IMG/VR virus record: IMGVR_UViG_3300048835_000959
Coordinates: 1 to 61,507 of that record
DNA: 61,507 nt
Direction: 5' to 3' (one strand)
From: a virus
Taxonomy: Duplodnaviria; Caudoviricetes
Made by a program: the position numbers and the translations under genes. This document shows positions 1-23,556 of the stretch, piece by piece. Every line of letters starts with the position of its first letter. Position 1 is the first letter of the stretch. Below the pieces are notes generated by a model that did no database searches, was not told the origin of the DNA, and saw only the letters and a program-made list of their open reading frames with translations.

Positions 1-813
1 TCATTGCAAGTTACTCCTTTGCAAGGGACTGGGATGACGAAACGCGACGCGCCTACAAGGACACAACGCGCACTGAGGAATCGACTTGGTTTCGAGGAAT
101 GAGCGAAGCTCGTCGTCGCTCGCTGTTGGCGGGCAAGATTCGTAATCACGGAACAAATCCCACTCCGAAATAGATTCGAGGCGGGCTTTTGTCTCTAGCT
201 GTGGCCAATACGCGAGTGCGGGGCATTTTGCTAGGCAACCATTCACAAGCTGGGTGCAAGCTCGCTGCATACAAACGCGATATGCGGCATCTGGCTCGGA
301 ATTGAAAGGCATCGGCTTGCCATCGACGATGTTGTATTGCCGCATCCAGCCTTTGTGCGACTTGCGAATGTTGATGCGAAGCTTCGGATACTGCTTACGC
401 CAACTCCACACGATCGCTTTAACTTCACGAAACCGATCGAGGTAGTCTTGATGTGTTCCATGCTGGCTGATTTCAAGTTGGCACTCTGTATCAACGAGAA
501 CCCGCGGCAACTCAGGGAAGCGGTGCAGGAAGAATCCATTGGTGACCAGCATCAGTTCACTGTCGTACCAATGTTGTCGAGCGACTTGAATGTGTTCCAA
601 GATCGCAGGATTGAGCAACGGTTCGCCGCCGAGCAAAGCGAATCGCGCTGGCTCAAGTCGATGCGACCATAGCGAGTACTCGGACTCAGCGTCGGCGAGC
701 GTTGGCAGCTTGCCTGCCAAGTGAAAGTTGCTGTAGTGGCTGCACTGCCGGCAGGACAAGTTGCAACCATGAGCAACGTGATACTCAAGTGCGGGCAAGC
801 TGAAGCGTTGCAT
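1..813 (-). CDS. Radical SAM domain protein
   Basis: CNLSCRQC (CxxxCxxC), GGEPLL and VTNG motifs, Cys-rich C-terminus; ATG at 813 preceded by AAGGAG. Confidence 0.85.
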   Translation of the reverse strand: MQRFSLPALEYHVAHGCNLSCRQCSHYSNFHLAGKLPTLADAESEYSLWSHRLEPARFALLGGEPLLNPAILEHIQVARQHWYDSELMLVTNGFFLHRFPELPRVLVDTECQLEISQHGTHQDYLDRFREVKAIVWSWRKQYPKLRINIRKSHKGWMRQYNIVDGKPMPFNSEPDAAYRVCMQRACTQLVNGCLAKCPALAYWPQLETKARLESISEWDLFRDYESCPPTASDDELRSFLETKSIPQCALCPCRRVAFRHPSPLQRSNLQ

Positions 814-1804
814 CGTCGCCCTCCTTGATCCGAAGTTTGAATCGACGAGCATTTACGCCCAGACGGATGAGAAACCGAGTTAGAACTAAATGCGATGAAA
901 ACGTTTCATCCAAGCTCGTCAGTCTCTCGTCGTAAACCGTCAGCTCATCGGACCACGTTCCTGAAACGAGCAGCTTCGGATAAACAGACAGAAGATTCGC
1001 TGCGAGATCTGGTCGGAAGATTGAGCCAATGTCGTAGCTCGTTGGCGGATCGTCTTTCCACTCGTTTATCAGTTCGAACGATTGACGATTGTCAGGAAAT
1101 GGCAACTCGGGTGGATTGCTTCGCTGCCAGTGACAGCGATCAAGATGCGGCTTGCTAGGGCCAATGAAGTGGTAGACAAAGGATTGCATCACTGGATTGG
1201 TTGCCCACTCAGGCGTCTGCAACATACTGACGTTGAAGTCAGGCGGCAGAAACGTGATGGTCTCGGCGTGATCGTTCCACAGTTGGTTGATGATCAGCGA
1301 CTCGTCGGTGGCTTGATCGTTGGCTCCAAAAGTAACGATTAAGTACTGAATGATTCGCTCGAACATGCGTGCAAACGTTTCGGTGTCGTACAAATACAGT
1401 CCACCGTTTGGATGCATCCAAGTCGGCGCGGGATTGAGGCGACATCGTTTGGCCCAAATTTCGTGCGCTGTCTTTTGCCACCCACCGTTGTCGATTCGGT
1501 TTTGAGCGCACTGCCTTTCGCCAACCATTGCGAACTGGCCAGGTTCGGCCAACGCGAACGGCGACGGACAGTCGCTGCGAATAACCATGTCGTTGTCGAT
1601 TTGCAGGACATGCGACGGACCGAACCGCTTTGCAACATCACCACAAACGAACATCTTTTGCCAAAATGGATGGCATGGTTGCAGAGGACGGCGAATCCAA
1701 TGCAGCTCGACGTTCCATCTCTCGGCAGCAGCTTCGACACTCTCTCGCACCGTCGGTACCGCACGGCGCGGTGGTAAATCCAGAATTGCGATGACTCGTT
1801 TCAT
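785..1804 (-). CDS. Putative GT-A glycosyltransferase (GT8-like)
   Basis: WQK..IDND DxD motif, NGG, DESLIN and YHFIG..KP motifs; ATGA overlap with the upstream gene. Confidence 0.65.
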   Translation of the reverse strand: MKRVIAILDLPPRRAVPTVRESVEAAAERWNVELHWIRRPLQPCHPFWQKMFVCGDVAKRFGPSHVLQIDNDMVIRSDCPSPFALAEPGQFAMVGERQCAQNRIDNGGWQKTAHEIWAKRCRLNPAPTWMHPNGGLYLYDTETFARMFERIIQYLIVTFGANDQATDESLIINQLWNDHAETITFLPPDFNVSMLQTPEWATNPVMQSFVYHFIGPSKPHLDRCHWQRSNPPELPFPDNRQSFELINEWKDDPPTSYDIGSIFRPDLAANLLSVYPKLLVSGTWSDELTVYDERLTSLDETFSSHLVLTRFLIRLGVNARRFKLRIKEGDDATLQLART

Positions 1805-2529
1805 TTCCAAAGTACCTTCCTTAATCCGTGTTTACGAAGTGCAGCTCTTAAGAACACTGGTCGATGCCGCTTGTAGGCCGGCGGATCGACATGGATGTGC
1901 GGGAACACATGGTCCATCGCCACTCCAACCCTGACGCCGGCAATCTTGGCTCGCCAGAAGAAGTCCCAGTGCTCATCGACCTTGAGGTCTTCATCCCAGC
2001 GAATCGCCTGCAAGATGTCTCGATGGGCAACAAAGCAGTTACAAACGAATGCGCACTCGGCAATGTCACCGATGCGTCGATACTCGCCACGAGGAATGTG
2101 CAGAACGCCGCCTGAGGAATTGAGTAGCCGGGGCGTTCCATCTGGATGAGGGCGATGGGGCTGCTTACTGAGTGTTGCCAATAGATCAAGGCGACTCAAT
2201 TCGAACTTGCGCACGAGATCATTCAGTCGTGTCTGCGGACCAACGACGTGATCGTCATCGGAGAAGATCACCATCCGAGTTTGCGCGGCTTCAACCAGAC
2301 GATTGCGACCAGCCGACAGTCCGATGTCATACTCGGTCTCAATGAGTCGGTCGACCATCGCGGCTTCATCAGGACAGGTCTGCGAGAATCGCAATTCAGG
2401 CTTCCCATCGTCGAGGACGTAGATCAACGGACGATCGTCCCCACAATACTCATAGATGCTGCGCACAAGCGTTGCGCAGCAATGAGGGCGATGGATAGTC
2501 TTGATGCAGAATGTGACTCGATCACGCAT
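1801..2529 (-). CDS. GT2-family glycosyltransferase
   Basis: TFCIKTIHRP, VLDDG, GLSAGRN, FSDDD and EHWDFF motifs; RBS GGAGG before ATG 2529. Confidence 0.8.
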   Translation of the reverse strand: MRDRVTFCIKTIHRPHCCATLVRSIYEYCGDDRPLIYVLDDGKPELRFSQTCPDEAAMVDRLIETEYDIGLSAGRNRLVEAAQTRMVIFSDDDHVVGPQTRLNDLVRKFELSRLDLLATLSKQPHRPHPDGTPRLLNSSGGVLHIPRGEYRRIGDIAECAFVCNCFVAHRDILQAIRWDEDLKVDEHWDFFWRAKIAGVRVGVAMDHVFPHIHVDPPAYKRHRPVFLRAALRKHGLRKVLWK

Positions 2530-3265
2530 GGACAATGCCTCCTCCTGGGTAGCGAAGTGAATCAAAGCCATGCTTGCGAAGCCCCAATCGGCGGAACTTG
2601 GGTCGAGCTCGCAGCGCTCCATATGGCTTAGCTGCAACGTGGTCGTGGACTACCGAGCAATCGAGCGCCACGGCGATTTGCAGATGTTCGATATGAGAGG
2701 CTCTATAGAAGAACTCCCAGTGCTCGTACGTTTTGATCTCGTCATCCCAGCGAACTCGGGCGATCGTGTCACGCCGCGCGAGGAATGCGTTGCTTACCAT
2801 GTCGCACCAACAGGTTTCGCCGATGCGTTTGCGTTCGCCTCGATGCATCCAGATGCGAGTTCCATTCATAAGTGGGCTGAATAGCATTGGCCGGCCGCCA
2901 GCATCTTGCCGTACAGCCAGAATGTCGAGGTCGTACTCAATGAACCTCTGGTAGACTCGGTCAAGATGCAGATCTGGCGTTACGATCTGATCATCATCCA
3001 GCAAAAAAATAAACTCGGTTTCTGCGGCGTCTATTGCTGTATTGCGTCCAACGCCGACACCCACATCGTGCTGCTGGAGATCAATCACTTTGCAGTGTTT
3101 GGCGGTCTCGGGATACTTGCGCGAGAACCAGTATTCAGGCAAGCCATCGTCAACGACCACGATCTTGGGCTCGACAAACTCCTTTCGAAGCGACTGGACG
3201 AGTCGATGGCAGGCCCAAGGCCGATGAATGGTTTTGATGCAGAAGGTAATGTCGTCGAACTTCAT
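2522..3265 (-). CDS. GT2-family glycosyltransferase (paralog of 1801..2529)
   Basis: TFCIKTIHRP, VVDDG, GVGVGRN, LLDDD and EHWEFF motifs. Confidence 0.8.
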   Translation of the reverse strand: MKFDDITFCIKTIHRPWACHRLVQSLRKEFVEPKIVVVDDGLPEYWFSRKYPETAKHCKVIDLQQHDVGVGVGRNTAIDAAETEFIFLLDDDQIVTPDLHLDRVYQRFIEYDLDILAVRQDAGGRPMLFSPLMNGTRIWMHRGERKRIGETCWCDMVSNAFLARRDTIARVRWDDEIKTYEHWEFFYRASHIEHLQIAVALDCSVVHDHVAAKPYGALRARPKFRRLGLRKHGFDSLRYPGGGIVHA

Positions 3266-3267
3266 GG

Positions 3268-4746
3268 TTAGCCAAACTTTCTTAATTGTGGGTTAACATG
3301 AGCGATTGCCGAATCGATCTCTTCGGAAGTGGGCTCAATGCCGAGGAATGCGATCAGTTCATTGATCACCGTTTCAGGATCTTCCGTTAGCTTGGCGAAG
3401 TTGATCCGATGGACGGGGACTTCGGGATGTTCTTGAATGAACGTCTCGCGATGTTCCAGAAGCGAACGCTGTAGCTTGTCGCAGGCTTCATCGCCGGCTG
3501 CGAACCATTGACCTGGATGTCGGCTACTTCGATCTTGAAGGGATCTAATCGAGGCTTCGATTGGGCGATCGACTGCGATGATTCGTAGCGAGTTATCGAG
3601 GTCTTCGTAGAGGTGGTTTGCGAATCGGCAGAGATGCGGATACTTGCCGCCTGCCACGGTTCGATCGCGAATGGCTTCTGCCTTCCGCGTTACGATCCAG
3701 GCCTTCAGTTGCTTGGCGAGCTGGCCGTCGGGAATCTTGGGATCGATCGCTGGGAATCGCATCGCCTTTTCACAAAGATTCGCTAGCCCGATCGCCTCGC
3801 CTCCGCCGGTAGCTTCGTAGCCACCGAGTTCGTTGCCCATATGAACGCCTAGATGATGCATGACCATCGCGACGCAACTGGTGCCACTGCGATGGGGCCC
3901 GAGGACGGCGAAGAACGGAGCGTCGCTGTGGTCGGCATTCTTGGCATCGTTAAAAAATCGCGTCTGCGTCCATTTGCGACCGCAGATGTTGGACTTGGTT
4001 GGAAGCTGACCAACTAGCCAGCGATCGGGTGTGTAAACAGGAATCGATTCTTTCTCAACGTTCTTACCTTGAACCAGCGCTTCGTAGCGCCGCTGAATCA
4101 ATCGACCCAGGTGATGATCGATGTGGTGCTTTAGGTGCCAGTCATTCCAGTTCAAGTGACGGTACAAAGCCTTCATCGTTGCGCGCCCGCGAACCATAAA
4201 GGCATGGGTGCGATTGACGTTGTAAGGTCGGTAAACGTGGTCGCTGATCTTCTTGGGCGGATGCTTGGCAGCGTACAGGTGCTGACCTCCGAGGTAAGCG
4301 AGGCCCCAGTCTTCAGGCAACTCACGAATGTATGCCTCAAGATGTTCCACGAAGTCCGGAACGAACCCCGCGTCATCTTCGAAGACCACATACGAGTCGA
4401 TCCCTTCGAGCAAACATTTCTCCAAGATCAGCAAGTGCGAACGGTAGCAGCCCCAGGCACCATTGCCGGCGCGCCACTGCTCGGGCGTCGAGAGCTTGCG
4501 ACCATCGATGGCTGCGAATCGCTCGACGTCTGGGAATGGCCATGGCTGCGGTAGTTGCTGCATCCATTCATGCAATCGATCATCACGGCGATCGAGATTC
4601 ATCAGGAAGCAACGTTCAACGATCTTCTTCGTCGGTATCTGGATCGTCTTCGTTGGGCTCGGGTGCACCGTCTGGGAACTTACGTTCAAACCTGCGGATG
4701 GCAGTGAGCACGAGTGACTTGGCGATGGTTCTAGTAAACTTTCCAT
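3268..4746 (-). CDS. GT25-family glycosyltransferase fused to a C-terminal sulfotransferase-like domain
   Basis: N-terminal NLDRRDDR, RFAAIDG, GCYRSH and VFEDD (GT25); C-terminal VLGPHRSGTS PAPS-binding loop; start uncertain. Confidence 0.75.
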   Translation of the reverse strand: MESLLEPSPSHSCSLPSAGLNVSSQTVHPSPTKTIQIPTKKIVERCFLMNLDRRDDRLHEWMQQLPQPWPFPDVERFAAIDGRKLSTPEQWRAGNGAWGCYRSHLLILEKCLLEGIDSYVVFEDDAGFVPDFVEHLEAYIRELPEDWGLAYLGGQHLYAAKHPPKKISDHVYRPYNVNRTHAFMVRGRATMKALYRHLNWNDWHLKHHIDHHLGRLIQRRYEALVQGKNVEKESIPVYTPDRWLVGQLPTKSNICGRKWTQTRFFNDAKNADHSDAPFFAVLGPHRSGTSCVAMVMHHLGVHMGNELGGYEATGGGEAIGLANLCEKAMRFPAIDPKIPDGQLAKQLKAWIVTRKAEAIRDRTVAGGKYPHLCRFANHLYEDLDNSLRIIAVDRPIEASIRSLQDRSSRHPGQWFAAGDEACDKLQRSLLEHRETFIQEHPEVPVHRINFAKLTEDPETVINELIAFLGIEPTSEEIDSAIAHVNPQLRKFG

Positions 4747-5188
4747 GGGGTAATCCTCTGAGTTGGGCTTCTTCCAAAAGCCATTCGATAATGGTGTCGA
4801 GATTCGTACGGCATCCCTCCACGCCCCAATCATTCATGGTCTCGGCGCGGGTCTCACACTTGCAGGTGTCGCTTGGTCTTGCGAACCATGCGAGCATCTT
4901 GCGAAGTTCACTTCCTGGCCCCGGCTTGTAAGCTGCGATCCGCAGGGTCGTGGGTTCTTCCTGATTGGGCAGGTAGCTCTTCAGCAGCGTTTTGAGTTCG
5001 TCGACGCTCTGGTTGCGTCGGCGTTTGTTGACGATGGCCATGCCGATCGTCACGAGGTTGACAGCTTGCGGATTCGAACACTCGCTGCAGGCTCGGCATC
5101 CGCTGGACGAAGCCTGGACGGAGCAGTCGGCCAAGTGACTAGCGACCTGACAGCGGTTGTCGTTAGTCAGATTGGGACAATGCATCAT
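4616..5188 (-). CDS. Cys-rich hypothetical protein
   Basis: 190 aa ORF coupled to the Ser-rich gene by an ATGA overlap; several Cys pairs. Confidence 0.6.
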   Translation of the reverse strand: MMHCPNLTNDNRCQVASHLADCSVQASSSGCRACSECSNPQAVNLVTIGMAIVNKRRRNQSVDELKTLLKSYLPNQEEPTTLRIAAYKPGPGSELRKMLAWFARPSDTCKCETRAETMNDWGVEGCRTNLDTIIEWLLEEAQLRGLPHGKFTRTIAKSLVLTAIRRFERKFPDGAPEPNEDDPDTDEEDR

Positions 5189-7584
5189 GCTGCCACCTCC
5201 ACAACTTCACCGTCGTACCCACCCGATCCACTCGGTGGATCGCCAACTTCGGGACAATCACTTTCAAGGAGCTGCCAACCGCAGGACCAGATCCATGTTG
5301 TATTGCAGGGCTCGCTCGTGCTGCTGTCGGAAGTTGGAGGTTCGCTTGGCGGTTCGCTATCGGAGTGACTGACGCTCGGACGATCCGACTCGCTGGTCGA
5401 TTGATCATGGGAGTCGCTTATTGATGGATCATTTGAATCGCTTGTCGATGGCGATGAGTCACTGCCTGAGCCGCTCGTTGATCCGCTTCCAGAGCCGCTT
5501 TGCGAATAGCTGCCAGAACCGCTGGTGGAATGGCTGGTCGACCAGGGAACGCTGTAGCTTTCACTTTCGCTGTAGCTGGGGCGGTCGCTGCTGGATCGGC
5601 TTTCTGAACCATCGCTGCTCGATGGCTCGCTCGTTGATCGCGATTCACTACCTGATTCGCTTTCCGACTGGCTTTGCGATTCGCTTTGCGATTCACTCTC
5701 GCTCTGGCTTGAGTCGCTGGCCGACACTGAACCACTGCCGCTTGAATAACTTGGCTGCGAGTAGCTCGGCCATGAGTAACTCGGCACCGAACGGCTATCG
5801 CTACTTGGATCTTGAGAATCCGATTGGCTTTCCGACTGGCTCTCGCTTTCCGAACTGATCGATTCGCTTTCGGAGCTGTCGGATTGGCTGCTGTCGCTTC
5901 CACTCGAATCGCTCTGGCTGGAATCGCTACCACTGGATGATCCCGAGTAGCTTGCGCTGTACGACTGGCTGTAACTGGCGTCGCTCGAATACGATTCGCT
6001 TGTTCGTGATGAATCTGAATCGCTAGATTCAGACTGGCTGGATTTTGATTCACTTGATTCGGACTGACTCGACTCCGATTTACTCGAGCTCGATCCACTG
6101 GAGCCGCTGGACTGGCTCGAATGACTCGAATCAGAGCTTGATCCGCTCGATGAGTGACTGCTTGAGTAAGAGGGCTCACTCAGTGAAATAGATTGGCTCG
6201 AGTCGCTAGAAGATCCGCTGGATGCAGATGATCCAGAACTTGATGATTGGCTTGAGCTTGAATGCGACGAGCTCGAGCCGGATGAACTCGAAAGACTAGA
6301 CGAACTCGATCCAGAACTTGAGACCGACGGTGCCGAGTAGGATTGCGACGAACTTGAATGCTCGCTCGACGATGAGCTCATCGAAGACTGGCTACTCGAT
6401 GAGCTGATGGAACTGGATGAACTCGATGAGACGCTCGAACTGCTCGACGAGGATGGACTCGATGAGCTACTGCCGGAGCTGCTGCTGGAGCTGCTCGACG
6501 ATGACGATGAACTCGAAGAGCTAGACGAGCTGCTGCTGGAACTTGAACTACTGCTTCCCTCGCAGCAGCGGCAGCCGATGGTTAGGTAAGCGCTGGTGTC
6601 CTCGTGGAAATGACAAACAATCTGTTGGCTTGTCAGAAGGGCATAGTCACAGACATTGTAGACCGCGACCTTGACTCCGATTGGTGCCCAGACACCGTTG
6701 GCATATCGCAGTTCACGAGCCATGCCCCAACTCTTAGCCTTGAGCCTCGAGACGGGTTTGCAGAGCAACGTTTGTTTTGGCGGGTCGATGATCCAGGAAT
6801 GATTGCCGTCGTAGGTGACGCTGAGATACTGACCATCGTCGTAATTGGAAACCGGACCTCGAATGCGCTGGGCGCTCGGGTTGCGAGCGATGATGCGAAC
6901 GCCTTGTCCATTCGGTTTCAGGACCGGCTCAATGGTGCCAGCATCGTCGAGCTGAAAGAGGTCGCAGTTGGCGGAACCGGTCGCAAGACCAGAGCGACCA
7001 GGGATACCACCGCTGGGAACCTTCACCAGGAACGCAGGATCGGCCGGCTTACCAACGCGAACGACAGCCCACTGGACGCCCGTTTGATTCGCATCGCGTC
7101 GCCATAGGATCTGGGCGGAGCCGCTGGGCGTTGACTGGAGTGTCGTACCTCCCGAGTCGGCTACATCAGCATATTGATGCCAGGTCTCTTGAACGTTCAC
7201 ACGGGCGGCGACGACGCCTGAGAATACCACGCGACCGACTTTGTCCTCGGCGATCGGCTCGATAGCTACTCCGAATCGTCCCATATGCTCGTCGACGATG
7301 GGACGAACCGACTGGATCGTCGCATCACGTACGAAACGAGCGAGTGCTGTATTGTCGACGTCTGGATCGCCCAGTGGGGCGTTAAAACCGACGATTCCAC
7401 CGATGGGCACAGTGGTCGCACTTTGATAGTGAACGCGAACGGTGGCAGCGTCGCGAACGTGGGTGCGGTTTCCTGCGCCACCTGCGAGTCGGTCACGCGC
7501 AACTGCATCGGCGGCCGCCAGCAGACGGTTGTATTCCGCTGCGGTGATATTGAGTCTTTCGCCTGGCCGAACTCGCCTTGCCAT
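5185..7584 (-). CDS. Putative distal tail/fibre protein with a ~415 aa Ser-rich mucin-like region
   Basis: Position two genes after the tape measure; beta-rich N-terminal ~345 aa, then poly-Ser/Ser-rich tract (about 5310-6555), short Cys/Trp tail. Confidence 0.65.
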   Translation of the reverse strand: MARRVRPGERLNITAAEYNRLLAAADAVARDRLAGGAGNRTHVRDAATVRVHYQSATTVPIGGIVGFNAPLGDPDVDNTALARFVRDATIQSVRPIVDEHMGRFGVAIEPIAEDKVGRVVFSGVVAARVNVQETWHQYADVADSGGTTLQSTPSGSAQILWRRDANQTGVQWAVVRVGKPADPAFLVKVPSGGIPGRSGLATGSANCDLFQLDDAGTIEPVLKPNGQGVRIIARNPSAQRIRGPVSNYDDGQYLSVTYDGNHSWIIDPPKQTLLCKPVSRLKAKSWGMARELRYANGVWAPIGVKVAVYNVCDYALLTSQQIVCHFHEDTSAYLTIGCRCCEGSSSSSSSSSSSSSSSSSSSSSSSSSSSGSSSSSPSSSSSSSVSSSSSSSISSSSSQSSMSSSSSEHSSSSQSYSAPSVSSSGSSSSSLSSSSGSSSSHSSSSQSSSSGSSASSGSSSDSSQSISLSEPSYSSSHSSSGSSSDSSHSSQSSGSSGSSSSKSESSQSESSESKSSQSESSDSDSSRTSESYSSDASYSQSYSASYSGSSSGSDSSQSDSSGSDSSQSDSSESESISSESESQSESQSDSQDPSSDSRSVPSYSWPSYSQPSYSSGSGSVSASDSSQSESESQSESQSQSESESGSESRSTSEPSSSDGSESRSSSDRPSYSESESYSVPWSTSHSTSGSGSYSQSGSGSGSTSGSGSDSSPSTSDSNDPSISDSHDQSTSESDRPSVSHSDSEPPSEPPTSDSSTSEPCNTTWIWSCGWQLLESDCPEVGDPPSGSGGYDGEVVEVAA

Positions 7585-8375
7585 TACTCGATCCCCAATG
7601 CGTTGAAGTTCGCTTCGGGGTAAACCTGTTCGACGTAGGCCGCTTCAGGAACTTGTAGGACGCGATCACCAACCACCTCTTCGCCATGCTTGACCCAGAG
7701 GTAATCCCAGCCTCGTTTCGCAACGCCAGAAATATTGCCAACCGTGAGGTTGATCTCGTTGGGACGCGCCGCGAAGTGATAGGTCACATCGACCCAGTTC
7801 TGTTCATCTTCGCCGCCTTCGCCTCCAAGGAACAATGCTTCTCCGGGAGCGAAGATCGACCAGGGACTTGAGTTAACACGGCCCGTCATCGCGACCATGG
7901 CGAGCAGGTAGGCAGTGGAGACAAACTCAAACTTTTTGCGGACAGAGAACTCGAACGCGGGAACGGTCACATCGACGCCGGCAACGCCCGAGTCGCTCAC
8001 ACCGATTGCACCTCGATAGTTCGGAGCGATCTTGCCTGGGGCGGCATAAATTCCACGAGTGATGAGCGACTGATTGAGATGCGTCGATGCGCCGGTGGTA
8101 TTGAACGAGACTGGATCGAGCTTGGTCCTGTTGATCGATGCGGTGACAAGAGCATGCTTCTCGTTGATGTACTCGCCATCAACTTGCAGGTACGGAATCA
8201 GATCCCGATGATTGCTGCGGTAGTACGACAGAAGCGCATCGGCCGCAGTTGCCGGATCAACGGCTCCCCCGTTTGTCCCAACGTACACGAACGTGTCGGC
8301 AGTCGACTTACCGCGAGTTGCCTTCTTGGACAGTGCTGCCAAGTCAAAATTGTATCCACCGTGTGAGAATCCCAT
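7584..8375 (-). CDS. Putative tail protein (distal-tail position)
   Basis: Directly follows the tape measure gene with a TAATG overlap; beta-rich composition. Confidence 0.55.
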   Translation of the reverse strand: MGFSHGGYNFDLAALSKKATRGKSTADTFVYVGTNGGAVDPATAADALLSYYRSNHRDLIPYLQVDGEYINEKHALVTASINRTKLDPVSFNTTGASTHLNQSLITRGIYAAPGKIAPNYRGAIGVSDSGVAGVDVTVPAFEFSVRKKFEFVSTAYLLAMVAMTGRVNSSPWSIFAPGEALFLGGEGGEDEQNWVDVTYHFAARPNEINLTVGNISGVAKRGWDYLWVKHGEEVVGDRVLQVPEAAYVEQVYPEANFNALGIE

Positions 8376-11300
8376 TAGCTGAACACGAAGCCTCCCGTGC
8401 GGGCGCGTTCGGCTAGCTGAGCGGTGTTCTCAGCGGTTTGAATGATGGCTCGCTTGACATCATCCGACATGCCTTCGCCAGTAACTGGGGGCATCTGCAG
8501 CCGAGCGACGCTTTGCGATAGAGCTGCGTCGAACTCCTCGAGTCGAGCTCGCACCGCAGCAAAGGATGCCAGAAGTGATTCGAGATTAAGCGATGGCTCC
8601 GTTTCCTCAGGAAACAATGCGTCGGCCAGTTCATCGAGCTCTTCCTCTGACATGTCTTGAGACTGCAAAGACGGGGTCTCGTTCATCGGAACAAGAACCT
8701 CGGGCATCTCCCCGTTATCAGGCTGAGCGTCTGCCTGCGGATCAACGTCAAGATCGCCCGCGTCAACATCTTCAGCCACGTCAGGTTTGTCAGCGACCTG
8801 CAAAGTAGGAATCAGCGATGCGCCGCTCCCAAGTCCCAGGCCACGGCTATCGAAGTTGCCGGCCGCTTCGGTCTTCTCGGTCACTGCTTCTGGACCGCTG
8901 GAGAATTGATCCAGCGAATCCTTAGCCGAGCGGTCGAGACCAAGCTTGAGGTCCTTCTTCTTGGGCGGCTTAAGCTTGGGATCTTTGATGCCATCGACTT
9001 CAACCTTCGGCACCTTCAGTTCGCCAGGCACCGGAGGCGCGGGCATGTGAGGGATCGGAGTGCCAGCGTCTGGTTCTTTGGCAGCTTCCGGCTCTTGCGG
9101 TTTTGCGGCATTGGCTGCTTCGACGGCGGCATCGAACTCAGCTTGGGCGGCGGCAACCTGATCGTCTCGTTCCTTGGTACGATCCTCGGGCGACTGACGA
9201 CCAGCTTCACGAGCGACGCGTGCCTCCTCACGCATTTGATCGAGGGTCTTTTGAACGCCTGCGGTGGTATCGTCGATCGTCTGTTGTCGCGACTGTCCGG
9301 CCGCTTCGTTCTGTTTGAACTGATCATCGCGCGAAGCATCGACCACCTGGTTCTTGGCGTCGGTCTCTTGATCGATGACCGCCATCTCAGCATCAATGTC
9401 GCGACCAGCCCGGGCCTTGCGTCGTTCCTCAAGTTGCTGCTTGATGCCTTCCTGCATCTGTACGCGATTAGCTTCGATCTGCTGTTTACGAGCGTCGCGC
9501 CGTTTCATGCGATCGCCGATGGCTTGCTGCTTCTTGGCTTCTTCGGCTTCGTCGGCTGTGCGGATCTCCTTGTCAATCTTGGCCATTTCGACTTCGACAT
9601 TCACATCGTCATCAAACAGTGACTTCAGTTTGATCCAGGCCTTGCGCAGAAAGCCGACGGTCGAATTCCACATCGATTTGACTTGGGCGACGAACACCGA
9701 CCAAGTGTCGGCGAGATAGTCAATCGTTTCGACCCAGGCGGTCTCTACGCCTGCAAGCGCATTGATGAGCACGCCACCGATCTGAACAGAAACGTCGCCA
9801 GCAATATCCACGAGCTCTCGCAGCCGAATGAATCCCTTTTTGAGAAACCCTATCGTGGAATTCCAGCCTTTTTGCACCGAGGTCGTGAGGATAGTCCAAC
9901 CATCGGCCATGAAACCGAGCGTCGCATTCCATACGCTTGCAAGTCCTGATAGGGCACTAATCAGCACATCGCCAATCGCGTAGGCGGTGTCGCCCCAAAC
10001 ATCGGACAGGTAACTGGTGAAATCGGCCCACACTCCTTTGAGATAGGTTGTGCCCTTGATCCACTGGAGCTTGAGATAGGTCCACAGAACATTGGCTGCT
10101 GCGGTGATATCTCCGGCAGCCAGTGCATTGGCGATCGCACCAAAGGCCTTGATCGTGTCGGCCTTCAGCGTCTCGAAGACGCCTTTCAAATACTCGATCG
10201 CCTGGCCGGCAATTCCAGTGGAGTAGATGAAGTATGCACCCAGTGCCGCGATGGCAGCGACAACCAGACCGAGAGGCGTGAACAGAGCGCCGATCATGGT
10301 CACAAGGAAGCCGATAGCGGTTCCCACCAGTGAGAACATCGAAGCCAGACCACCGACTGCGAATGCAGCGACACCAGCGGCGCTACCGATGCCGATGAAC
10401 GCTGCGCCTACACCAACCACGCCAGCAACGATGAGGGCGACCTTCTTGACCACTTCCTGGTTCTTGCCGATCCATTCGGTGAGTCCAGACAATGCCCGTG
10501 AGATCGCATTCATCATCTTGGTCACAGAGAGATCGAGTGATTCGCCAATCGCAATCGCTACGCCCTCGATGGAGCTTTTGAGAATCCGGAAGGCACCGCC
10601 GATTCCAGAATCCATATCAGCAGCTGTCTTGGCGGAGATTCCACGGGCTTTTTGAATCTCGCCGAGCAATTGCCGGGTATCGGTAACCGACTTGCCGATC
10701 GCAGATGCGCTCGTGATGCCCAACAATCCAAACACTTCGTTGAATGCTGCGGCGCGATCACCAGAGCCCATGTTGGCTGTGGCTGCAGCAACTTCACCAA
10801 GCACATCGACCAGCTTGCGAGCGTTACCTTGCGCATCTTTCGTAGCAACGCCGAAGACCTTTTGAAACTTCTCGGATTCCGACGCGCTAAGCGTGAGCAA
10901 GCGACGCAGTGCGGTTCCCGCCTCGCTGCCTTGAATCCCAAGGTTTCCAAGGGTACCGAGAATGGCGAGCGTCTCTTCGAGACTCATGTTGGCATCGGCT
11001 GCCACAGGACCTGCATACGATAATGCCTCGCCGAGTGATTCCACGGAGTTGAACGACTTGTTGGCCGCGGCCGTCAATCCGTCAGCGACGCGGACCGCAT
11101 CGGTGGCTGCCATCGAAAACTGGCGAATGGTGGCGGCCATGATCCCGGAGCTGAGGGTTGCATCGGTACCAGTAGCTCTTGCGAGATTCATCACCGCGCC
11201 GGTCATCTCTTCGATTTGCTTGGGTGAGAAACCGGCTCGTCCGAGCTCGGTCATCAGCGAGGCAACTTCACTCGCCGAGAAACTCGTGGTTGCCCCAAGA

Positions 11301-11578
11301 AGCTTGGCTTTCTCACGCAAGGAATCGAAAGCCGCTCCAGTCGCGCCGGCCACTGCACCTGCGGCGCGAATCGCATCATCGAAGTTAGCATAGACGGCGA
11401 CACTTCCAGCCACGGGAGCAGCAGCGGCCACCCCTAGTCCCATCAGCTTGGTGCCGATCATTCGCGTTGATGCGCCGAATGATTTCAGCCGCTTCTGCGC
11501 AGCCTCGAGCCCCTTGAGGAACTGGGCGCTCCTCGCGGTCAGCTCGACGTAGGCTCCTCCGGCTTTGACTTGAGACAT
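8375..11578 (-). CDS. Phage tail tape measure protein (TP901-type core)
   Basis: 1067 aa Ala/Gly-rich; LGATTSFSASEVA, ELGRAGF and GIQGSEAGTALR motifs; hydrophobic middle with periodic Trp. Confidence 0.92.
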   Translation of the reverse strand: MSQVKAGGAYVELTARSAQFLKGLEAAQKRLKSFGASTRMIGTKLMGLGVAAAAPVAGSVAVYANFDDAIRAAGAVAGATGAAFDSLREKAKLLGATTSFSASEVASLMTELGRAGFSPKQIEEMTGAVMNLARATGTDATLSSGIMAATIRQFSMAATDAVRVADGLTAAANKSFNSVESLGEALSYAGPVAADANMSLEETLAILGTLGNLGIQGSEAGTALRRLLTLSASESEKFQKVFGVATKDAQGNARKLVDVLGEVAAATANMGSGDRAAAFNEVFGLLGITSASAIGKSVTDTRQLLGEIQKARGISAKTAADMDSGIGGAFRILKSSIEGVAIAIGESLDLSVTKMMNAISRALSGLTEWIGKNQEVVKKVALIVAGVVGVGAAFIGIGSAAGVAAFAVGGLASMFSLVGTAIGFLVTMIGALFTPLGLVVAAIAALGAYFIYSTGIAGQAIEYLKGVFETLKADTIKAFGAIANALAAGDITAAANVLWTYLKLQWIKGTTYLKGVWADFTSYLSDVWGDTAYAIGDVLISALSGLASVWNATLGFMADGWTILTTSVQKGWNSTIGFLKKGFIRLRELVDIAGDVSVQIGGVLINALAGVETAWVETIDYLADTWSVFVAQVKSMWNSTVGFLRKAWIKLKSLFDDDVNVEVEMAKIDKEIRTADEAEEAKKQQAIGDRMKRRDARKQQIEANRVQMQEGIKQQLEERRKARAGRDIDAEMAVIDQETDAKNQVVDASRDDQFKQNEAAGQSRQQTIDDTTAGVQKTLDQMREEARVAREAGRQSPEDRTKERDDQVAAAQAEFDAAVEAANAAKPQEPEAAKEPDAGTPIPHMPAPPVPGELKVPKVEVDGIKDPKLKPPKKKDLKLGLDRSAKDSLDQFSSGPEAVTEKTEAAGNFDSRGLGLGSGASLIPTLQVADKPDVAEDVDAGDLDVDPQADAQPDNGEMPEVLVPMNETPSLQSQDMSEEELDELADALFPEETEPSLNLESLLASFAAVRARLEEFDAALSQSVARLQMPPVTGEGMSDDVKRAIIQTAENTAQLAERARTGGFVFS

Positions 11579-11880: not shown

Positions 11881-12317
11881 ACAGCGAGCTTGCGTTCGAG
11901 ATCTTCGACGAGCTTGTCGACCAAGTTCGGATCGTCCAGTCGCTTCTCGATCGCATTGATCCCCCGAGTCTCGATCAACTTCTGTTTCTCGGCCGCCTTC
12001 CGCAGAAGACGGCGTCGGGACTCCGGGAAGTAATTGATCAACGCTTCGAGGAGTGCACCGGTTGCATCGTCGATCGAGTTTCCAGCGAGGCCCTCACCGA
12101 AGGCTTCGTCCGTGATCTGCTGCTGATCAGCTTGCGGCTTGCAAATCGCAAATAGCACATCGCCGAGGAGCAACGGATCGGTCGAGAGGCGTGTGATCAA
12201 ATCACCGTCGATCGCTTCCAGCAGATGCACGCCTGTGAGAGTCTTCACGCGGCGCAGCGTCGTGTTATCGATATCCACAATCCAAATGCGACCGGCGCGG
12301 TCAACGAACTTCTGCAT
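11817..12317 (-). CDS. Tail assembly chaperone (G-like)
   Basis: Position between tail tube and tape measure; helical composition; GGGAGG RBS. Confidence 0.65.
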   Translation of the reverse strand: MQKFVDRAGRIWIVDIDNTTLRRVKTLTGVHLLEAIDGDLITRLSTDPLLLGDVLFAICKPQADQQQITDEAFGEGLAGNSIDDATGALLEALINYFPESRRRLLRKAAEKQKLIETRGINAIEKRLDDPNLVDKLVEDLERKLAVPTLSDSSSDSPASSESIQVP

Positions 12318-12368
12318 GATGCCTCCCTGAGTGTTATGAATCCTCTAAACCAACGACAACGCCAGCGA

Positions 12369-12785
12369 TCAAGGACCAGCCAAGCCAGGTCCAACATTCA
12401 TGCCACCACCGGAACTCGACTGAGTTGGCTTGAGAGTCACATCTGCGGAGATGACCTCTTCCAAGTTCTGGTTGACATTGAAGGTCATCACTTCACAAGT
12501 CAGTGTGAGCGTGCCACCAGCGTCGCTGATGCCGACATCACAGGGATCACCGCTACTCCACAAGCCTTGAAGCAAGCCGAACGCGCTATCGCCATCCTTG
12601 TTCAGCACTGTGAACTCGATGGACGCATCCTTCAGCGTTCCGACCGTCGCGCGCCAGCCGTTGTTGGCCCGAGTGCTGGCGTCGGCTTCGGCCTTTTCAA
12701 GGCTGACGGTTAAATCCTTGACATTGGTGATCTCGACGCCGTCGACGGTGAGGACGGCTTCGAGACCAAGTCTTACTTCTGGCAT
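12369..12785 (-). CDS. Major tail tube protein
   Basis: 138 aa beta-rich protein with DASTRANNGWRATVGTLKDASIEF motif; synteny. Confidence 0.75.
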   Translation of the reverse strand: MPEVRLGLEAVLTVDGVEITNVKDLTVSLEKAEADASTRANNGWRATVGTLKDASIEFTVLNKDGDSAFGLLQGLWSSGDPCDVGISDAGGTLTLTCEVMTFNVNQNLEEVISADVTLKPTQSSSGGGMNVGPGLAGP

Positions 12786-12811
12786 CGTGAATGATTCCTT
12801 ATGGCGAACGT

Positions 12812-13378
12812 TTACTTAACTGAGTTGGCCCAGAACATTGGGAGCCGACTCCGATTGGCATCTAGTGCCGGCTTCATGAAGGGGCGTTTGGGGTAATGAC
12901 GAGGTTTGTTGTCACTGCGACGCTCGTTCTCTTCAGCAACCAAGCGAGTGGCTCGATTGGCTTGTGCTGCGGTTCGCAATTCGATCCGCGCAAACTTCGT
13001 CTTGTTTCCGTGCTGCTTGATTCGGATTGGACCATGCTCGCCAACCTTGAATCGATGTGGCTTCAGCTTGCGGCGTTTGGTTGCCACGCCACCAAATTCA
13101 TGCAGGTTCCAAAGCCGGCCCGCGATCTCATTCACCGGCCCGATAATCACTTCGGTCTTGTTGTTGGTTACTTCGTAGCGAATCACTCGCCTGAGCATGC
13201 CGGTCTGGGTATGCGGTGGGCTTCCAGGCTTGGATGACTTCTTACGCTTGCGAATGCTCCGACTGGCAGTTTTACGGATGGCACCGCCGGCTTCGCTGAT
13301 CGATGTAAAGGTGGCAGTTTCCACCTTCTTCTTGAGCTTTCGCTTATCGAATTGAGTTCGAACGGTGAGTCTGATCAT
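12812..13378 (-). CDS. Tail completion / HK97 gp10-like protein
   Basis: Basic protein with SKPGSPP..TGMLRR, HEFGG and PKRPFMKPAL motifs. Confidence 0.65.
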   Translation of the reverse strand: MIRLTVRTQFDKRKLKKKVETATFTSISEAGGAIRKTASRSIRKRKKSSKPGSPPHTQTGMLRRVIRYEVTNNKTEVIIGPVNEIAGRLWNLHEFGGVATKRRKLKPHRFKVGEHGPIRIKQHGNKTKFARIELRTAAQANRATRLVAEENERRSDNKPRHYPKRPFMKPALDANRSRLPMFWANSVK

Positions 13379-13803
13379 CGCGCCAGTTCAAAGGTTAGGG
13401 TCAACAGACTGGTAAACTGACGCAGTTGCTCCCAATGTTCGCTGGAGTACAGCACGGCATGTTCAGCCTTCACACAGCGAGCCGCTTGAAATGAAACGAG
13501 CCGTTTCAAGCGAAACTCGTCGGCGATCTTCTCCACCAGATCCACCAGTGGATCGATCTCCTCGTTGGTTCCCTTGGAGAACTTTTTCTGCACTGCAACA
13601 TCAACACGGCAGTGGTATCGGTTGTGGGCGCGATCGTGAGGCAAAAGCTCGACGTCGCGAGGTACCACGCTCACGCGAAGTTCCTTCATGTCTTCGAGGT
13701 CGAAGTTGGGAACATACAAACGCTCGGCGACGAACTCGAAGTCGAACTCGGCGGCATTGAGCTGAGCGGTGACGCTGTCGGCAACTTGTAGAACGGTCGT
13801 CAT
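13375..13803 (-). CDS. Putative tail terminator protein
   Basis: Size and synteny; ATGA overlaps on both sides. Confidence 0.5.
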   Translation of the reverse strand: MTTVLQVADSVTAQLNAAEFDFEFVAERLYVPNFDLEDMKELRVSVVPRDVELLPHDRAHNRYHCRVDVAVQKKFSKGTNEEIDPLVDLVEKIADEFRLKRLVSFQAARCVKAEHAVLYSSEHWEQLRQFTSLLTLTFELAR

Positions 13804-14183
13804 GAGGGATGGGATTCGATCTGTTTGGTGTGGATGCGGAGTTTCAAACGGAATGGGTCGCTGTAGCGCCAAGGTGGGTCGCCACCAAGGGCCATCACTT
13901 CAAAGATGAAGGTGTGGTTGCAATCGATCTCAACGATCGTGTCACCGCGGCGTGGCAAAGTTCCGATGATCGACTGGAGCAGAGATTGCGTGTCGATCAG
14001 GAAGTCGCGGACCTGGCTGCGAGTGACAATGCCCTCGCCATCGTCCTGGTCATACACCGACTTGCCGATCGTGGCTTGGAGCGTGGCTCCAAGCTCTCCT
14101 CGGCGATACACGACCTGACGCGATGCGTGCTGGGTGAGTTTTGAGGCAAGCCACTCCTGGCCTTTCTGAAGCATGTCGGTCAT
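13800..14183 (-). CDS. Head-tail joining / head closure protein
   Basis: 127 aa with RDFLI..PRRGDTIVE pattern reminiscent of gpFII-like proteins; synteny. Confidence 0.55.
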   Translation of the reverse strand: MTDMLQKGQEWLASKLTQHASRQVVYRRGELGATLQATIGKSVYDQDDGEGIVTRSQVRDFLIDTQSLLQSIIGTLPRRGDTIVEIDCNHTFIFEVMALGGDPPWRYSDPFRLKLRIHTKQIESHPS

Positions 14184-14470
14184 GACTCGGCTTTTGCCTT
14201 CGTGTTGCCAAGCAGCTTCGAAGCCTTCGTTCGAACTTCATCAAGCCAAACCGCATCGGCGCGGCGCTGATACTCGGACGCAACCGCATTGGCCTCTTCG
14301 TCAAGCTGTTGCTGACGAAGGGTTGTTTGACGAACGGGCTGGGCTGGTTCTGGAGTCAGGAATGCAACGGGCGACGCTTGCTTGAGTTGCTCTGGTTCCC
14401 GTTTCTTCACAGGAATCAGGGCAACTGCCAGCAGGACGACAACCACAATGATGGCTATGGCTAATAACAT
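14180..14470 (-). CDS. Small single-pass membrane protein
   Basis: N-terminal hydrophobic helix followed by a charged helical tail. Confidence 0.55.
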   Translation of the reverse strand: MLLAIAIIVVVVLLAVALIPVKKREPEQLKQASPVAFLTPEPAQPVRQTTLRQQQLDEEANAVASEYQRRADAVWLDEVRTKASKLLGNTKAKAES

Positions 14471-14519
14471 TTTTTTGGTTGAACCTCATCTAGGAGAATG
14501 GATTGGGTTAAAGCAACGC

Positions 14520-15572
14520 TCAGCTAATGCCGCGTTTGATCAGAATGAACACGAGCAGCACGACTGCGATTCCGATGAGCGCGACCGTGGCGATCTCGCC
14601 GGCCGACAGCCAAAGGAGAGCGTTGCGAGTGTCTTTCGCCCCGTCGAAGAGATCGCGCACTCGATCTAGTGGCCGACGGTCTTCAGAGGGGGGCGTTGGG
14701 CAATAGCCATCGGGACAATCCTCGGCCGACAGATACAGCGTCGGTGTGATCGCATCGTCCCAGGAGTAACCTTTGGTTTTTACCGCGCCGGTTTTCTGTG
14801 CCTCCTTGGCTTGCTTGTAGAGCGTGTAACCATGACGGAGGTCCGAGTAGAGCTCGTCCGGCGTGCTTGGAATCATCGAACGACCAGCGGCGTGGATGTG
14901 TCCGCCGGTTGCATCTTGGAAGAGAACCACAGGGAACTGATCCGCAGGCACAATGTCGGCGTAGCGAGTCTTGTAGATCGCGTTCGTTGCCGTGTAGACC
15001 TGGAATTCGCAGCTTTCCTTGAGTGCCGCAAGTTGCTTGTTTTGCGTGAACCATTCCTGTAGTCGCTGACTTGTGGCATCAGTGTTCACGAACAACGCGA
15101 TCTGGTAACTCTTCTTCGGTGGAGGAGCCGCAGGATTCGAAACGGGAGTTACAACCAGCGGCTCTTGCGTTGGCTTTGGAGTGTCCACGAAATTCGGCGT
15201 CGCAGGTACCGGTTGGGCAAATGTGGGCGTCACCGTTGGCGTCACAACGGTCGGTTGCACGATTGTGGGCTGAACTACCACCGGCGCGGGATAGACGCGT
15301 TGTGGTAGGCAATTCGGCGGACAGTTGCGGATCTGTTGCTTGATCTCACCCTGGGCCTGCAAGTTAACCGACTGCGGCTCTTGCAACTTCTCGATCGTGC
15401 CAACACTTGGCGAAGTCGGTCGATAGTTGGGTACCGTCCAGCTTTGTTCAGGCTGTGGCTGCGCCGGCTTGTCATGCAAAGCAGTGAAGACAACGCCCAG
15501 GAGAATCGCGTGGACGATTGCCACCACGATCAGCCCCAGACTTAAGCGAATTCGAATCGTATCGTTGATCAT
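14520..15572 (-). CDS. Membrane-anchored hypothetical protein
   Basis: N- and C-terminal TM helices, Pro/Thr/Val-rich linker, CPPNC and CPDGYC motifs. Confidence 0.6.
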   Translation of the reverse strand: MINDTIRIRLSLGLIVVAIVHAILLGVVFTALHDKPAQPQPEQSWTVPNYRPTSPSVGTIEKLQEPQSVNLQAQGEIKQQIRNCPPNCLPQRVYPAPVVVQPTIVQPTVVTPTVTPTFAQPVPATPNFVDTPKPTQEPLVVTPVSNPAAPPPKKSYQIALFVNTDATSQRLQEWFTQNKQLAALKESCEFQVYTATNAIYKTRYADIVPADQFPVVLFQDATGGHIHAAGRSMIPSTPDELYSDLRHGYTLYKQAKEAQKTGAVKTKGYSWDDAITPTLYLSAEDCPDGYCPTPPSEDRRPLDRVRDLFDGAKDTRNALLWLSAGEIATVALIGIAVVLLVFILIKRGIS

Positions 15573-15577
15573 GGTGA

Positions 15578-16177: not shown

Positions 16178-16225
16178 TTTCAGCTCGCGAAATGAACTTT
16201 CTTGGCGACGGTTAGTTCTGAGCCG

Positions 16226-16579
16226 CTATTGACTCAGTCTTAAGCGGACACAGCGAGTTCCTGCTGGCGCAGATTCGATCGCTTTGCCCATCATGGGGTG
16301 GGCGTAAGCGTTCTTGACCACATGCCAACTGATCTCCGACCAGTAAAGGATTGTGCCCGCGGGAATGTTGGTGGTTGGATCTTTCACAACATCGAAGACG
16401 CCCCGCATCGTGATGCTGCCACGTGAGCCCGCACTAATCCCAAACTTGGCGATGCCCACGAGCCGGTCGACGACAACCACTGAGCCAGCGGCCACGTCGG
16501 ACTCGGGGACGATCGGCAAGGTGTTACCATCCGCGACGAAGATGGCTCCTGCATTTATGACTTGTGCGTTGTTGCTCAC
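16226..16579 (-). CDS. DUF2190-like capsid cement/decoration protein
   Basis: DVAAGSVVV..VGIA..GVFDV.K..VRLRLSQ pattern; downstream of the capsid gene. Confidence 0.75.
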   Translation of the reverse strand: MSNNAQVINAGAIFVADGNTLPIVPESDVAAGSVVVVDRLVGIAKFGISAGSRGSITMRGVFDVVKDPTTNIPAGTILYWSEISWHVVKNAYAHPMMGKAIESAPAGTRCVRLRLSQ

Positions 16580-23504: not shown

Positions 23505-23556
23505 GACGCAGAAAGCGCGACGCAAAACACACCTCGAACCACACAGGAACGCAACG

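Follow-up and report, generated by a model that had tools for sequence, protein, structure and literature searches.

Phage-encoded glycosylation of phage particles is known from few systems, and we know of none in which phage particles are sulfated by phage enzymes. Serine-rich surface proteins served by dedicated glycosyltransferases (GTs) are familiar from Gram-positive bacteria, including GspB, Fap1, and SraP with GtfA/GtfB and an accessory Sec system, and the staphylococcal Ser-Asp repeat proteins with SdgA/SdgB. The 61,507-base IMG/VR provirus record IMGVR_UViG_3300048835_000959 (this whole stretch of DNA is hereafter called the window) carries a gene for a Ser-rich, fibre-like protein directly followed by genes for GTs, a sulfotransferase, and a radical SAM enzyme. 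Comparative evidence gives good support to the proposal that these GTs functionally belong to the Ser-rich protein, a presumed virion component, and makes it fairly probable that this fibre is O-glycosylated, and perhaps sulfated, in the cytoplasm before assembly.

The available excerpts of two studies of Gram-positive serine-rich repeat adhesins (PMC6973325, PMC7948813) describe Ser-rich tracts glycosylated by adjacent cytoplasmic glycosyltransferases. As far as those excerpts go, the locus shares with the adhesins variable-length, S-X dipeptide-like Ser tracts, adjacent GT genes, and an attached folded binding region. It is unlike them in that no GT4 GtfA/GtfB pair, accessory Sec gene (SecA2/SecY2/Asp), or cell-wall anchor was found among the 46 window proteins scanned, in that the carrier would be a virus particle rather than a cell wall, and in that a GT25 enzyme would initiate and sulfation would be added; the locus resembles the serine-rich repeat/accessory-Sec systems in logic and is not a member of them. 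Amongst phages, the accessible part of one report (PMC11256854) states that mycobacteriophages of cluster F1 and related groups (e.g., Che8 and Rita) decorate their own capsids using phage-encoded glycosyltransferases. Modification of the phage's own structural protein by phage enzymes in the cytoplasm before assembly, inferred or demonstrated in that text, is likewise proposed here. The mycobacteriophage acceptors are major capsid proteins, and two glycosyltransferases are encoded near the genome end with no sulfotransferase mentioned in that part of the report, whereas here a Ser tract of ~415 aa within a minor fibre protein is the candidate acceptor, the tail operon encodes four to five GT domains together with a sulfotransferase and a radical SAM enzyme, and the host belongs to the planctomycetes. 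The Megavirinae, according to a partial text (PMC10117803), have glycosylated surface fibrils and clade-specific glycosylation gene clusters, and the window resembles them in its virus-encoded, clustered, and lineage-variable glycosylation toolbox for surface fibrils; on the same text they differ in being giant viruses of eukaryotes whose clusters, of 6-33 genes, also cover nucleotide-sugar synthesis, as compared with transferases only in a 61-kb prophage. Literature searches turned up no earlier account of a Ser-rich virion protein accompanied by a glycosyltransferase/sulfotransferase operon, or of this prophage family in Planctomycetota. New elements are the mucin-like tract in a fibre protein, a sulfotransferase among enzymes encoded within the tail operon, the phylum, and the signs that whole enzyme sets were exchanged around a retained Ser tract.

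The fibre gene is an open reading frame (ORF) on the minus strand (5185-7584) encoding 799 aa, of which 272 are Ser. Its N-terminal folded module (residues 1-342; 6559-7584), the presumed virion anchor, ends in the junction ...HFHEDTSAYLTIGCRCC[DE] and is followed by the Ser-rich tract (residues 343-760; 5305-6558), the presumed acceptor region, and by a C-terminal Cys/Trp knob of ~39 aa (5185-5304, including the stop codon) with the pattern C-x3-W-x-W-S-C-G-W-x-L-x4-C ... P-P ... D-G. The 417 residues from 344 to 760 hold 250 Ser (60%, versus 5.8% in the remaining protein), together with 49 Asp+Glu, 22 Gly, 20 Gln, 18 Pro, and 12 Tyr. Over its first ~150 residues the tract is nearly pure Ser, with a longest run of 27 (residues 344-370) in which all six Ser codons are used, and the later part has an S-X rhythm (e.g., SESQSESQSD..., SYS...) with D, E, Q, or G. 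Since Ser codons are mixed (AGC 88, TCG 59, AGT 40, TCA 40, TCC 27, and TCT 18 over the whole ORF) and Tandem Repeats Finder detects no more than eight short, weak arrays in the tract DNA (within 5334-6543; periods of 9-51, 2-4 copies), the tract is kept at the protein level and is not a DNA microsatellite. The first-pass annotation of the window had made the same observation, describing a 799-aa protein with a Ser-dominated stretch of ~415 aa and a run of ~27 Ser in mixed codons, and the direct counts bear it out.

The fibre protein matches no Pfam, PHROG, or NCBIfam model, and tblastn against 50,697 GenBank phage records returned no match. Close homologues, with N-domain identities of 46-97% across 93 loci, all combine an N-domain ending in ...HFHEDTSAYLTIGCRCC[DE] with a Ser tract, the length of which varies between 58 and 643 residues in 63 relatives and which shows in-frame indels of 3, 6, and 12 nt in environmental contigs. 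Their C-termini are of two types, namely the ~40-aa Cys/Trp knob found in the window or a ~140-aa domain starting SDKSTAIVPA. The knob occurs in 44 distinct versions and, in 18 diverse homologues, has twelve invariant positions including 3 Cys and 3 Trp. Residues 1-185 (7030-7584) define a very large phage family with 3,472 representatives at E<=1e-3 and 1,278 at E<=1e-10; amongst its best 150 members the median length is 289 aa and Ser tracts occur in only 6. One family member of 780 aa (P0124) has an analogous architecture with Thr in place of Ser, its many small Cys-rich modules being joined by poly-Thr linkers.

Six genes follow the fibre gene on the same strand. The first (Cys190; 4616-5188) encodes a 190-aa protein with 9 Cys, 7 being invariant across 13 homologues, for which the initial wording 'Cys-rich' is somewhat strong; it has no family match in Pfam, PHROG, or NCBIfam. 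The second encodes a GT25-sulfotransferase fusion (GT25-ST; 3268-4602) with a likely ATG at 4602 (444 aa), the longest frame extending to 4833. Its GT25 domain (PF01755, 40.9 bits, cutoff 24; residues 75-185 of the 521-aa frame) also matches the glucosyltransferase family phrog_2835 (E 1.9e-10), and its sulfotransferase domain matches Sulfotransfer_1 (PF00685, 24.9 bits, cutoff 22), with Sulfotransfer_3 (PF13469) at 25.1 bits falling under its cutoff of 27. The sulfotransferase translation holds the stretches GPHRSGTS and RPIEASIRS, which resemble what we take to be the 5'-PSB and 3'-PB motifs that bind 3'-phosphoadenosine-5'-phosphosulfate (PAPS). The next two genes encode GT2 enzymes (GT2a, 247 aa, 2522-3265; GT2b, 1801-2529, with a likely ATG at 2529 after AGGAGG and a longest frame to 2637, 278 aa) that belong to the GT2 family PF00535 with 43.6 and 27.1 bits (cutoff 23.3). 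The last gene (rSAM; 1-813) has its stop codon at bases 1-3, a likely ATG at 813 after AAGGAGG, and a longest frame to 852; it encodes a radical SAM enzyme (PF04055, 34.9 bits, cutoff 29.5; Fer4_12) with CNLSCRQC as its CX3CX2C motif, and its NCBIfam matches, the best being viperin-like at 36.7 bits versus a cutoff of 180, all lie far under the subfamily cutoffs. The fusion, the two GT2s, and the radical SAM enzyme named in the first-pass annotation accordingly all have Pfam matches above cutoff. The fifth gene, p341 (785-1804; 341 aa, or 339 aa from ATG 1804), an optional cluster member that the annotation called GT8-like, is a different case: the protein has no Pfam, PHROG, or NCBIfam match at E<=0.01 and an 11-row profile found nothing among PDB sequences, so the label rests on a lead from language-model neighbours (viral clusters carrying GT34, Nucleotid_trans, or GT8, at 0.93-0.91 with 157-168 shared features) and on an invariant D-x-D (D72 and D74), and the protein is probably a GT-A-fold glycosyltransferase. 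All six cluster proteins appear to be soluble and free of membrane segments, the maximum 19-residue Kyte-Doolittle means being 0.77-1.14 and none exceeding 1.25. Because no stretch is compatible with a membrane span, the enzymes are expected to be cytoplasmic, with access to nucleotide sugars and PAPS.

The cluster is physically joined to the tail genes. The minus-strand order is tape measure, p263, fibre, Cys190, GT25-ST, GT2a, GT2b, p341, and rSAM, and every junction lies between a 29-nt overlap and a 13-nt gap. The tape measure/p263 and p263/fibre junctions are TAATG overlaps; the start of Cys190 overlaps the fibre stop (ATGA) behind a Shine-Dalgarno-like GGAGG; gaps of 13 nt and 2 nt separate Cys190 from GT25-ST and GT25-ST from GT2a; and GT2a/GT2b, GT2b/p341, and p341/rSAM overlap by 8 nt (behind AGGAGG), by ATGA, and by 29 nt (behind AAGGAGG), respectively. 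These junctions, read directly, bear out the earlier description of overlapping or abutting genes downstream of the Ser-rich gene, and show the enzyme genes to be translationally coupled to the tail genes as one unit. A consensus scan found no terminator-like site on the minus strand from 7584 to 1; counts of promoter- and terminator-like sites (1 against 4.9 expected, and 10 against 11.4) show no enrichment, in a scan whose consensus may not suit planctomycete promoters. In contigs from four soil metatranscriptome runs, relatives 90-99% identical extend across tail and enzyme genes, and short contigs span the GT25-ST/Cys190, Cys190/fibre, and fibre/p263 junctions; the runs were chosen using this stretch, DNA carry-over is possible, and such contigs carry no strand, level, or timing.

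Co-occurrence of Ser-rich genes with GT clusters in related prophages had been put forward as a check, and it is nearly complete in close relatives. Scans of sequence collections yielded 51 viral and 74 genome loci with fibre relatives; 93 loci are close (near-full N-domain at 45% identity or more). Setting aside truncated fibre ORFs (10 of 93) leaves 83 complete genes, and setting aside those with less than 3 kb of downstream sequence (20 of 83) leaves 63 with at least 3 kb. Cys190 and GT25-ST stand directly behind the fibre gene in 62 of these 63 loci; the exception (L075) is a decayed element with a truncated 466-aa fibre gene and an out-of-frame tail. Amongst the 44 loci with at least 7 kb downstream, GT25-ST and Cys190 are each present in 43, GT2a, GT2b, and rSAM each in 41, and p341 in 21. 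Across 301 Pirellulaceae genomes, GT25-ST has a match in 44, often in several copies, and the N-domain in 60; a close N-domain is accompanied by GT25-ST at 70% identity or more in 22 of 23 genomes, and in three complete or draft genomes GT25-ST copies equal prophage copies in number (1, 4, and 2) and lie at the same coordinates. Over the same loci the mean identity is 78% for GT25-ST, the most conserved gene of the region, 70% for the fibre N-domain, and 66% for the tape measure, values by which the enzymes appear as conserved as the structural proteins. Accessory genes vary, with an additional Sulfotransfer_1 protein and a GT11 in one locus (L100), a ConA-like lectin-domain protein in another (L034), and an IS21 insertion in a third (L113); such varying content is expected of a diversifying glycan toolbox. 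Separately, the closest relatives (L053-L055, L006, L009, L014, and others) have a small extra ORF between GT25-ST and GT2a, from a family of 16 members of up to 201 aa with no Pfam match; it has no counterpart in the window, where the gap is 2 nt.

More distant relatives separate the Ser tract from the particular enzymes behind it. The order tape measure, p263, fibre is kept where the N-terminal ~180 aa are only ~30% identical, and nine of these relatives (L037, L039, L040, L041, L043, L117, L118, L119, and L122) bear Ser tracts in which small Cys-rich modules are scattered between Ser runs, the longest of 41 residues. GTs lie directly downstream in all nine and belong to other families (Glycos_transf_1, GT64, GT2); six (L040, L041, L043, L117, L122, and one more) encode a sulfotransferase from a different family (Sulfotransfer_4), and an FkbM methyltransferase occurs in one and a radical SAM protein in two. 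The six relatives without a Ser tract (L038, L045, L048, L050, L051, and L052) have no downstream GT, one of them carrying a radical SAM and a methyltransferase gene there. A further locus (L044) was scanned with only 838 bp downstream, and four (L049, L126, L120, and L121) were left out as truncated or with too little DNA. The tree of the fibre N-terminal 185 aa covers 74 rows (68 with both traits, 5 with neither, and 1 Ser-rich without the cluster), L048 being excluded because its match starts at residue 82. It requires two state changes for Ser-richness and three for the cluster, and places the clade with alternative enzymes beside 46%-identity members carrying the GT25 set; the nesting indicates that the enzyme set was exchanged and the Ser tract kept. 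A further arrangement, in which enzymes related to those of the window follow a different protein, occurs at L129, where a different N-terminal domain with a Ser linker and an SDKSTAIVPA-type C-terminus is followed by a 271-aa protein that is 35% Ser and then by homologues of GT25-ST (38% identity), GT2a (72%), GT2b (60%), and rSAM (54%). Amongst 12 loci with distant chromosomal GT25-ST paralogues, a Ser-rich ORF adjoins or lies near the gene in 4 (L129, L130, L132, and L134). Distant paralogues (29-40% identity; L127, L128, L132, L135, L136, and L138) also often lie beside ORFs of 1195-2458 aa, including at L132 a giant ORF with a (GGSSSYS)n tract, which hints that the host uses this type of enzyme on giant surface proteins. 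One of the relatives without a Ser tract, the viral contig L048, encodes a Cas9-Cas1-Cas2 set (12146-16557; RuvC_III, HNH, Cas9 alpha lobe, Cas1, and Cas2) after the tail gene, with a tyrosine integrase nearby.

On the favoured reading, the fibre is probably trimeric, with the N-terminal anchor (residues 1-342), a disordered tract of ~415 aa and 60% Ser, and the Cys/Trp knob. Among GT25 enzymes are the collagen galactosyltransferases, which O-glycosylate a protein of repetitive sequence. The fibre would be made late, together with its enzymes, and its unfolded Ser tract would be O-glycosylated in the cytoplasm, with GT25 the likely initiator and GT2a, GT2b, and the optional GT-A-like p341 extending the glycan. 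The fused PAPS-type sulfotransferase could sulfate the glycan or, less likely, the 12 Tyr amid the acidic S-X repeats, and the modified trimer would then be built into the virion, giving three long, hydrated, polyanionic, mucin-like threads, each tipped by a Cys/Trp knob; such threads might serve for shielding, for adhesion, or for mimicry of polysaccharides on which the host feeds. The radical SAM enzyme and Cys190 may tailor sugars, or may modify or assemble the Cys-rich knob; a predicted complex of Cys190 with the knob scored 0.29 against a mark of 0.32, which is uninformative either way. Of the phage-built, glycosylated brush proposed in the first-pass annotation, the link between enzymes and fibre is upheld by synteny, replacement of the enzyme set, coupling, and solubility, and the glycan and sulfate on the virion are the conjectural part.

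Several observations weigh against this interpretation, and some of them are what lysogenic conversion would predict. In that unlikely alternative, the cluster is a moron, expressed from the prophage, that remodels host surface glycans such as lipopolysaccharide, exopolysaccharide, or host glycoproteins (e.g., for superinfection exclusion), and the Ser tract is an unmodified spacer, as Ser-rich linkers can be. Lysogenic-conversion genes also occupy the terminal position in prophages, and the serotype-converting gtr clusters of P22/SfV-type prophages, like the GT genes of the window, are placed after the last tail gene and before the end of the prophage; the Gtr proteins, which act on O-antigen, are integral to the membrane. 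Beyond rSAM, relatives have one small same-strand ORF and then unrelated, variable genes, which makes the cluster a terminal prophage module, the last before the variable flank and opposite the integrase. GT25 and GT2 are, by their Pfam descriptions, classic families of lipopolysaccharide and exopolysaccharide synthesis, and homologues of the GT25-ST fusion are found in host chromosomes outside prophages, 8 of the 12 examined having no Ser-rich neighbour. The support for the proposed modification of the presumed virion fibre is furthermore comparative; the 62 of 63 count (19 viral and 44 genome loci in all) comes from partly duplicate, closely related loci; the tree yields one independent pair on well-supported branches and two on all branches, with which a sign test cannot reach significance; genes for nucleotide-sugar and PAPS synthesis are not present; and the RNA-library contigs are uninformative on the timing of expression, nothing being drawn from them. 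Conversion nevertheless leaves unexplained why all nine distant Ser-rich relatives carry unrelated GTs (six with an unrelated sulfotransferase) and none of the six relatives without the tract does. It is also at odds with the coupling to the tail operon, where a promoter of its own would need to lie inside coding sequence, and with a conservation of the cluster equal to that of the structural genes. Unlike the gtr clusters, the cluster has a membrane segment in none of its six proteins, and it co-varies with a Ser-rich structural protein; GtrA/GtrB/Gtr-type membrane proteins are absent, no window protein matching GtrA or a related family in Pfam, and the cluster is not a Gtr-type module. A role in DNA hypermodification, with the GTs glycosylating hydroxymethyl-pyrimidines against restriction and bearing no relation to the Ser-rich protein, is hardly credible. 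GT2a does have a sub-threshold match to the TET-associated glycosyltransferase PF20691 (26.0 bits, cutoff 27.5), and phage glycosyltransferases that act on DNA are described in the accessible part of bioRxiv 10.1101/2023.12.21.572611, but no TET/JBP, hydroxymethylase, or related Pfam domain occurs among the 46 window proteins, the genes lie in the late structural operon rather than in the replication module, and the sulfotransferase and the co-variation with the Ser tract have no place in such a scheme.

A different question is where on the particle the fibre sits, and here its gene neighbours and its fold were compared. The gene follows those for the 1067-aa tape measure (8375-11578; PF10145, 151.5 bits; phrog_28, E 3.7e-75) and p263 (7584-8375; 263 aa), the latter a presumed tail-tip component. 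The AlphaFold model of fibre residues 1-342 (mean predicted local distance difference test score, pLDDT, 77.5) consists of an N-terminal helix, a domain at residues 43-180, a beta domain, and an OB-like domain at residues 270-342. The best structural matches of residues 43-180 are capsid decoration and fibre-base proteins, with Z scores of 11.2, 10.1, 9.9, 9.8, and 8.9 down to 7.5; they include HFTV1 8qsy_JI (Z 11.2, root-mean-square deviation 2.4, 107 residues aligned), FCWL1 (Z 10.1), a C-terminal fragment of the phi29 tail appendage gp12 (Z 9.8), the base of the phi29 head fibre gp8.5 (Z 8.4), and TW1 (Z 7.5). The modelled domain is that of the trimeric, beta-tulip-like capsid stabilisation and fibre-base proteins, a likeness of fold only, apart from location and function. 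A Foldseek search of the model against the PDB gave nothing at E<=1e-3 (best 8.1e-3) and BFVD gave 6 matches at E<=1e-3 for this domain; in a viral structure library the same fold recurs in proteins of ~150-210 aa and at the start of long proteins annotated as tail fibre-like, collagen-repeat, or Mtd-N proteins. With phi29 gp8.5, HFTV1 gp18, and TW1 gp56 the fibre shares, besides this fold (Z 7.5-11.2), an N-terminal base carrying a protruding fibre, while it differs in having no detectable sequence similarity to them, a disordered Ser tract instead of a coiled coil, and a gene after the tape measure rather than beside the capsid gene.

It is accordingly conceivable, if improbable, that the fibre sits on the capsid as a cement protein or head fibre like phi29 gp8.5, in which case the link between enzymes and fibre would be real and the brush would be a glycan shield on the head. 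The matches to HFTV1 8qsy_JI, FCWL1, the gp8.5 base, and TW1 favour this location; the available part of PMC12494034 names the HFTV1 protein gp18, a capsid stabilisation protein, and points to the same structural relatives, and the virion glycosylation known from mycobacteriophages is, in the accessible text, that of capsids (PMC11256854). The order tape measure, p263, fibre is, on the other hand, maintained down to ~30% identity, no other tail-tip or receptor-binding candidate was found in the window, the same fold heads proteins annotated as tail fibre-like and matches the phi29 gp12 fragment, and residues 270-342 (OB-like, Z 5-6) weakly resemble the OB domains of central spikes (Z 5.1-5.4). 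The tail tip is thus the likely location, favoured because of the gene order, its conservation, and the lack of another tail-tip candidate; of the tail-fibre position claimed initially, only gene order supports the assignment, and the N-terminal fold is as much like capsid cement and head-fibre bases as like tail-fibre bases. The neighbouring p263 was considered as a Dit-like hub, and no convincing fold match was found: its model (pLDDT 82.5) aligns best in VIA-align to ribosomal proteins (Z 6.0, residues 3-84 only), SPP1 Dit appears in Foldseek at rank 31 (probability 0.03), Pfam, PHROG, and NCBIfam give no match, and a profile against PDB sequences gave one match at E 0.79.

In its prophage family, a temperate and siphovirus-like one of Pirellulaceae (Planctomycetota), the region forms the distal end of the late structural operon. 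The record has a CheckV completeness of 78%, and nearly all genes are on the minus strand. From the large serine integrase (59933-61507), the order runs through defence-type genes, a replication/recombination module, terminase, portal, a protease-capsid fusion, head-tail joining and tail completion genes, a small major tail protein, and the tape measure to the Ser-rich region. Since the record stops at the stop codon of its last gene, which ends at base 1, its left edge is a cut by provirus software rather than a natural end. Annotated homologues of the fibre N-terminal 340 aa come from Pirellula and Novipirellula, and the genome loci are in Pirellulaceae isolates and metagenome-assembled genomes, including strain SH449 (N-domain 97% identical), Aporhodopirellula (with four copies in A. 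rubra CECT 8075), Novipirellula (among them N. rosea), Stieleria, Rubripirellula, Rhodopirellula, and others, with 2-5 copies in several genomes. The available part of the paper on strain SH449 mentions phage tail genes as a sign of prophages and nothing further (PMC13092639).

Elsewhere in the window, the defence-type block (45666-56668) encodes an MmeI-like type IIL restriction-modification enzyme (53876-56668), a DEAD/ResIII helicase with a PMBR repeat, a T5orf172/MUG113 protein, an ORC-CDC6-like and PRTase-CE pair (47661-50458), and an N6 methylase. Between the capsid and head-tail genes (14520-16177) lie genes for a 199-aa protein with a lipoprotein-like signal (LLLLVLAGC) and a 350-aa Pro-rich protein with hydrophobic segments at both termini; neither has a family match, and the pair may be lysis or envelope-crossing proteins, for which the position is unusual. 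On the plus strand, 23435-27334 contains seven copies of a direct repeat of ~81 nt, spaced 335-1149 nt apart with the conserved core ...CCGCATGGCTCATGTGTGTCATC..., and ends in a match to the Hammerhead type II ribozyme (RF02276; 27267-27334, 39.6 bits, gathering threshold 37); the region has a strongly positive AT skew. A minus-strand ORF of 1932 aa (23437-29235) was considered as a giant fibre and rejected, as it looks like a chance frame across the repeat-bearing region.

What such a brush would do for the phage invites a more speculative extension, to be taken as a long shot. In the accessible text of Boedeker et al. 2017 (PMC5394234), pili-like fibres of the large crateriform structures of planctomycetes bind gold-labelled high-molecular-weight dextran, which is then internalised. 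The brush might act as bait, its sulfated glycan mimicking the sulfated algal polysaccharides harvested by Pirellulaceae, so that the crateriform fibres would reel the virion in; after capture, the Cys/Trp knob or the tail tip would engage the true receptor, a Trojan-horse route by way of nutrient uptake. If this were true, it would represent the first sulfated glycoprotein made by a bacteriophage. The prophage family is common, and since its carriers include cultured, genome-sequenced strains, the proposed modification of the fibre is directly testable. If the proposed modification of the fibre is correct, a mucin-like, polyanionic surface would join the devices that phages use for adsorption or shielding, and a small set of enzymes able to O-glycosylate and sulfate a simple Ser tract would be of interest for glyco-engineering. 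It would also provide a first handle on phage-host recognition in a phylum with an unusual cell surface and polysaccharide uptake.

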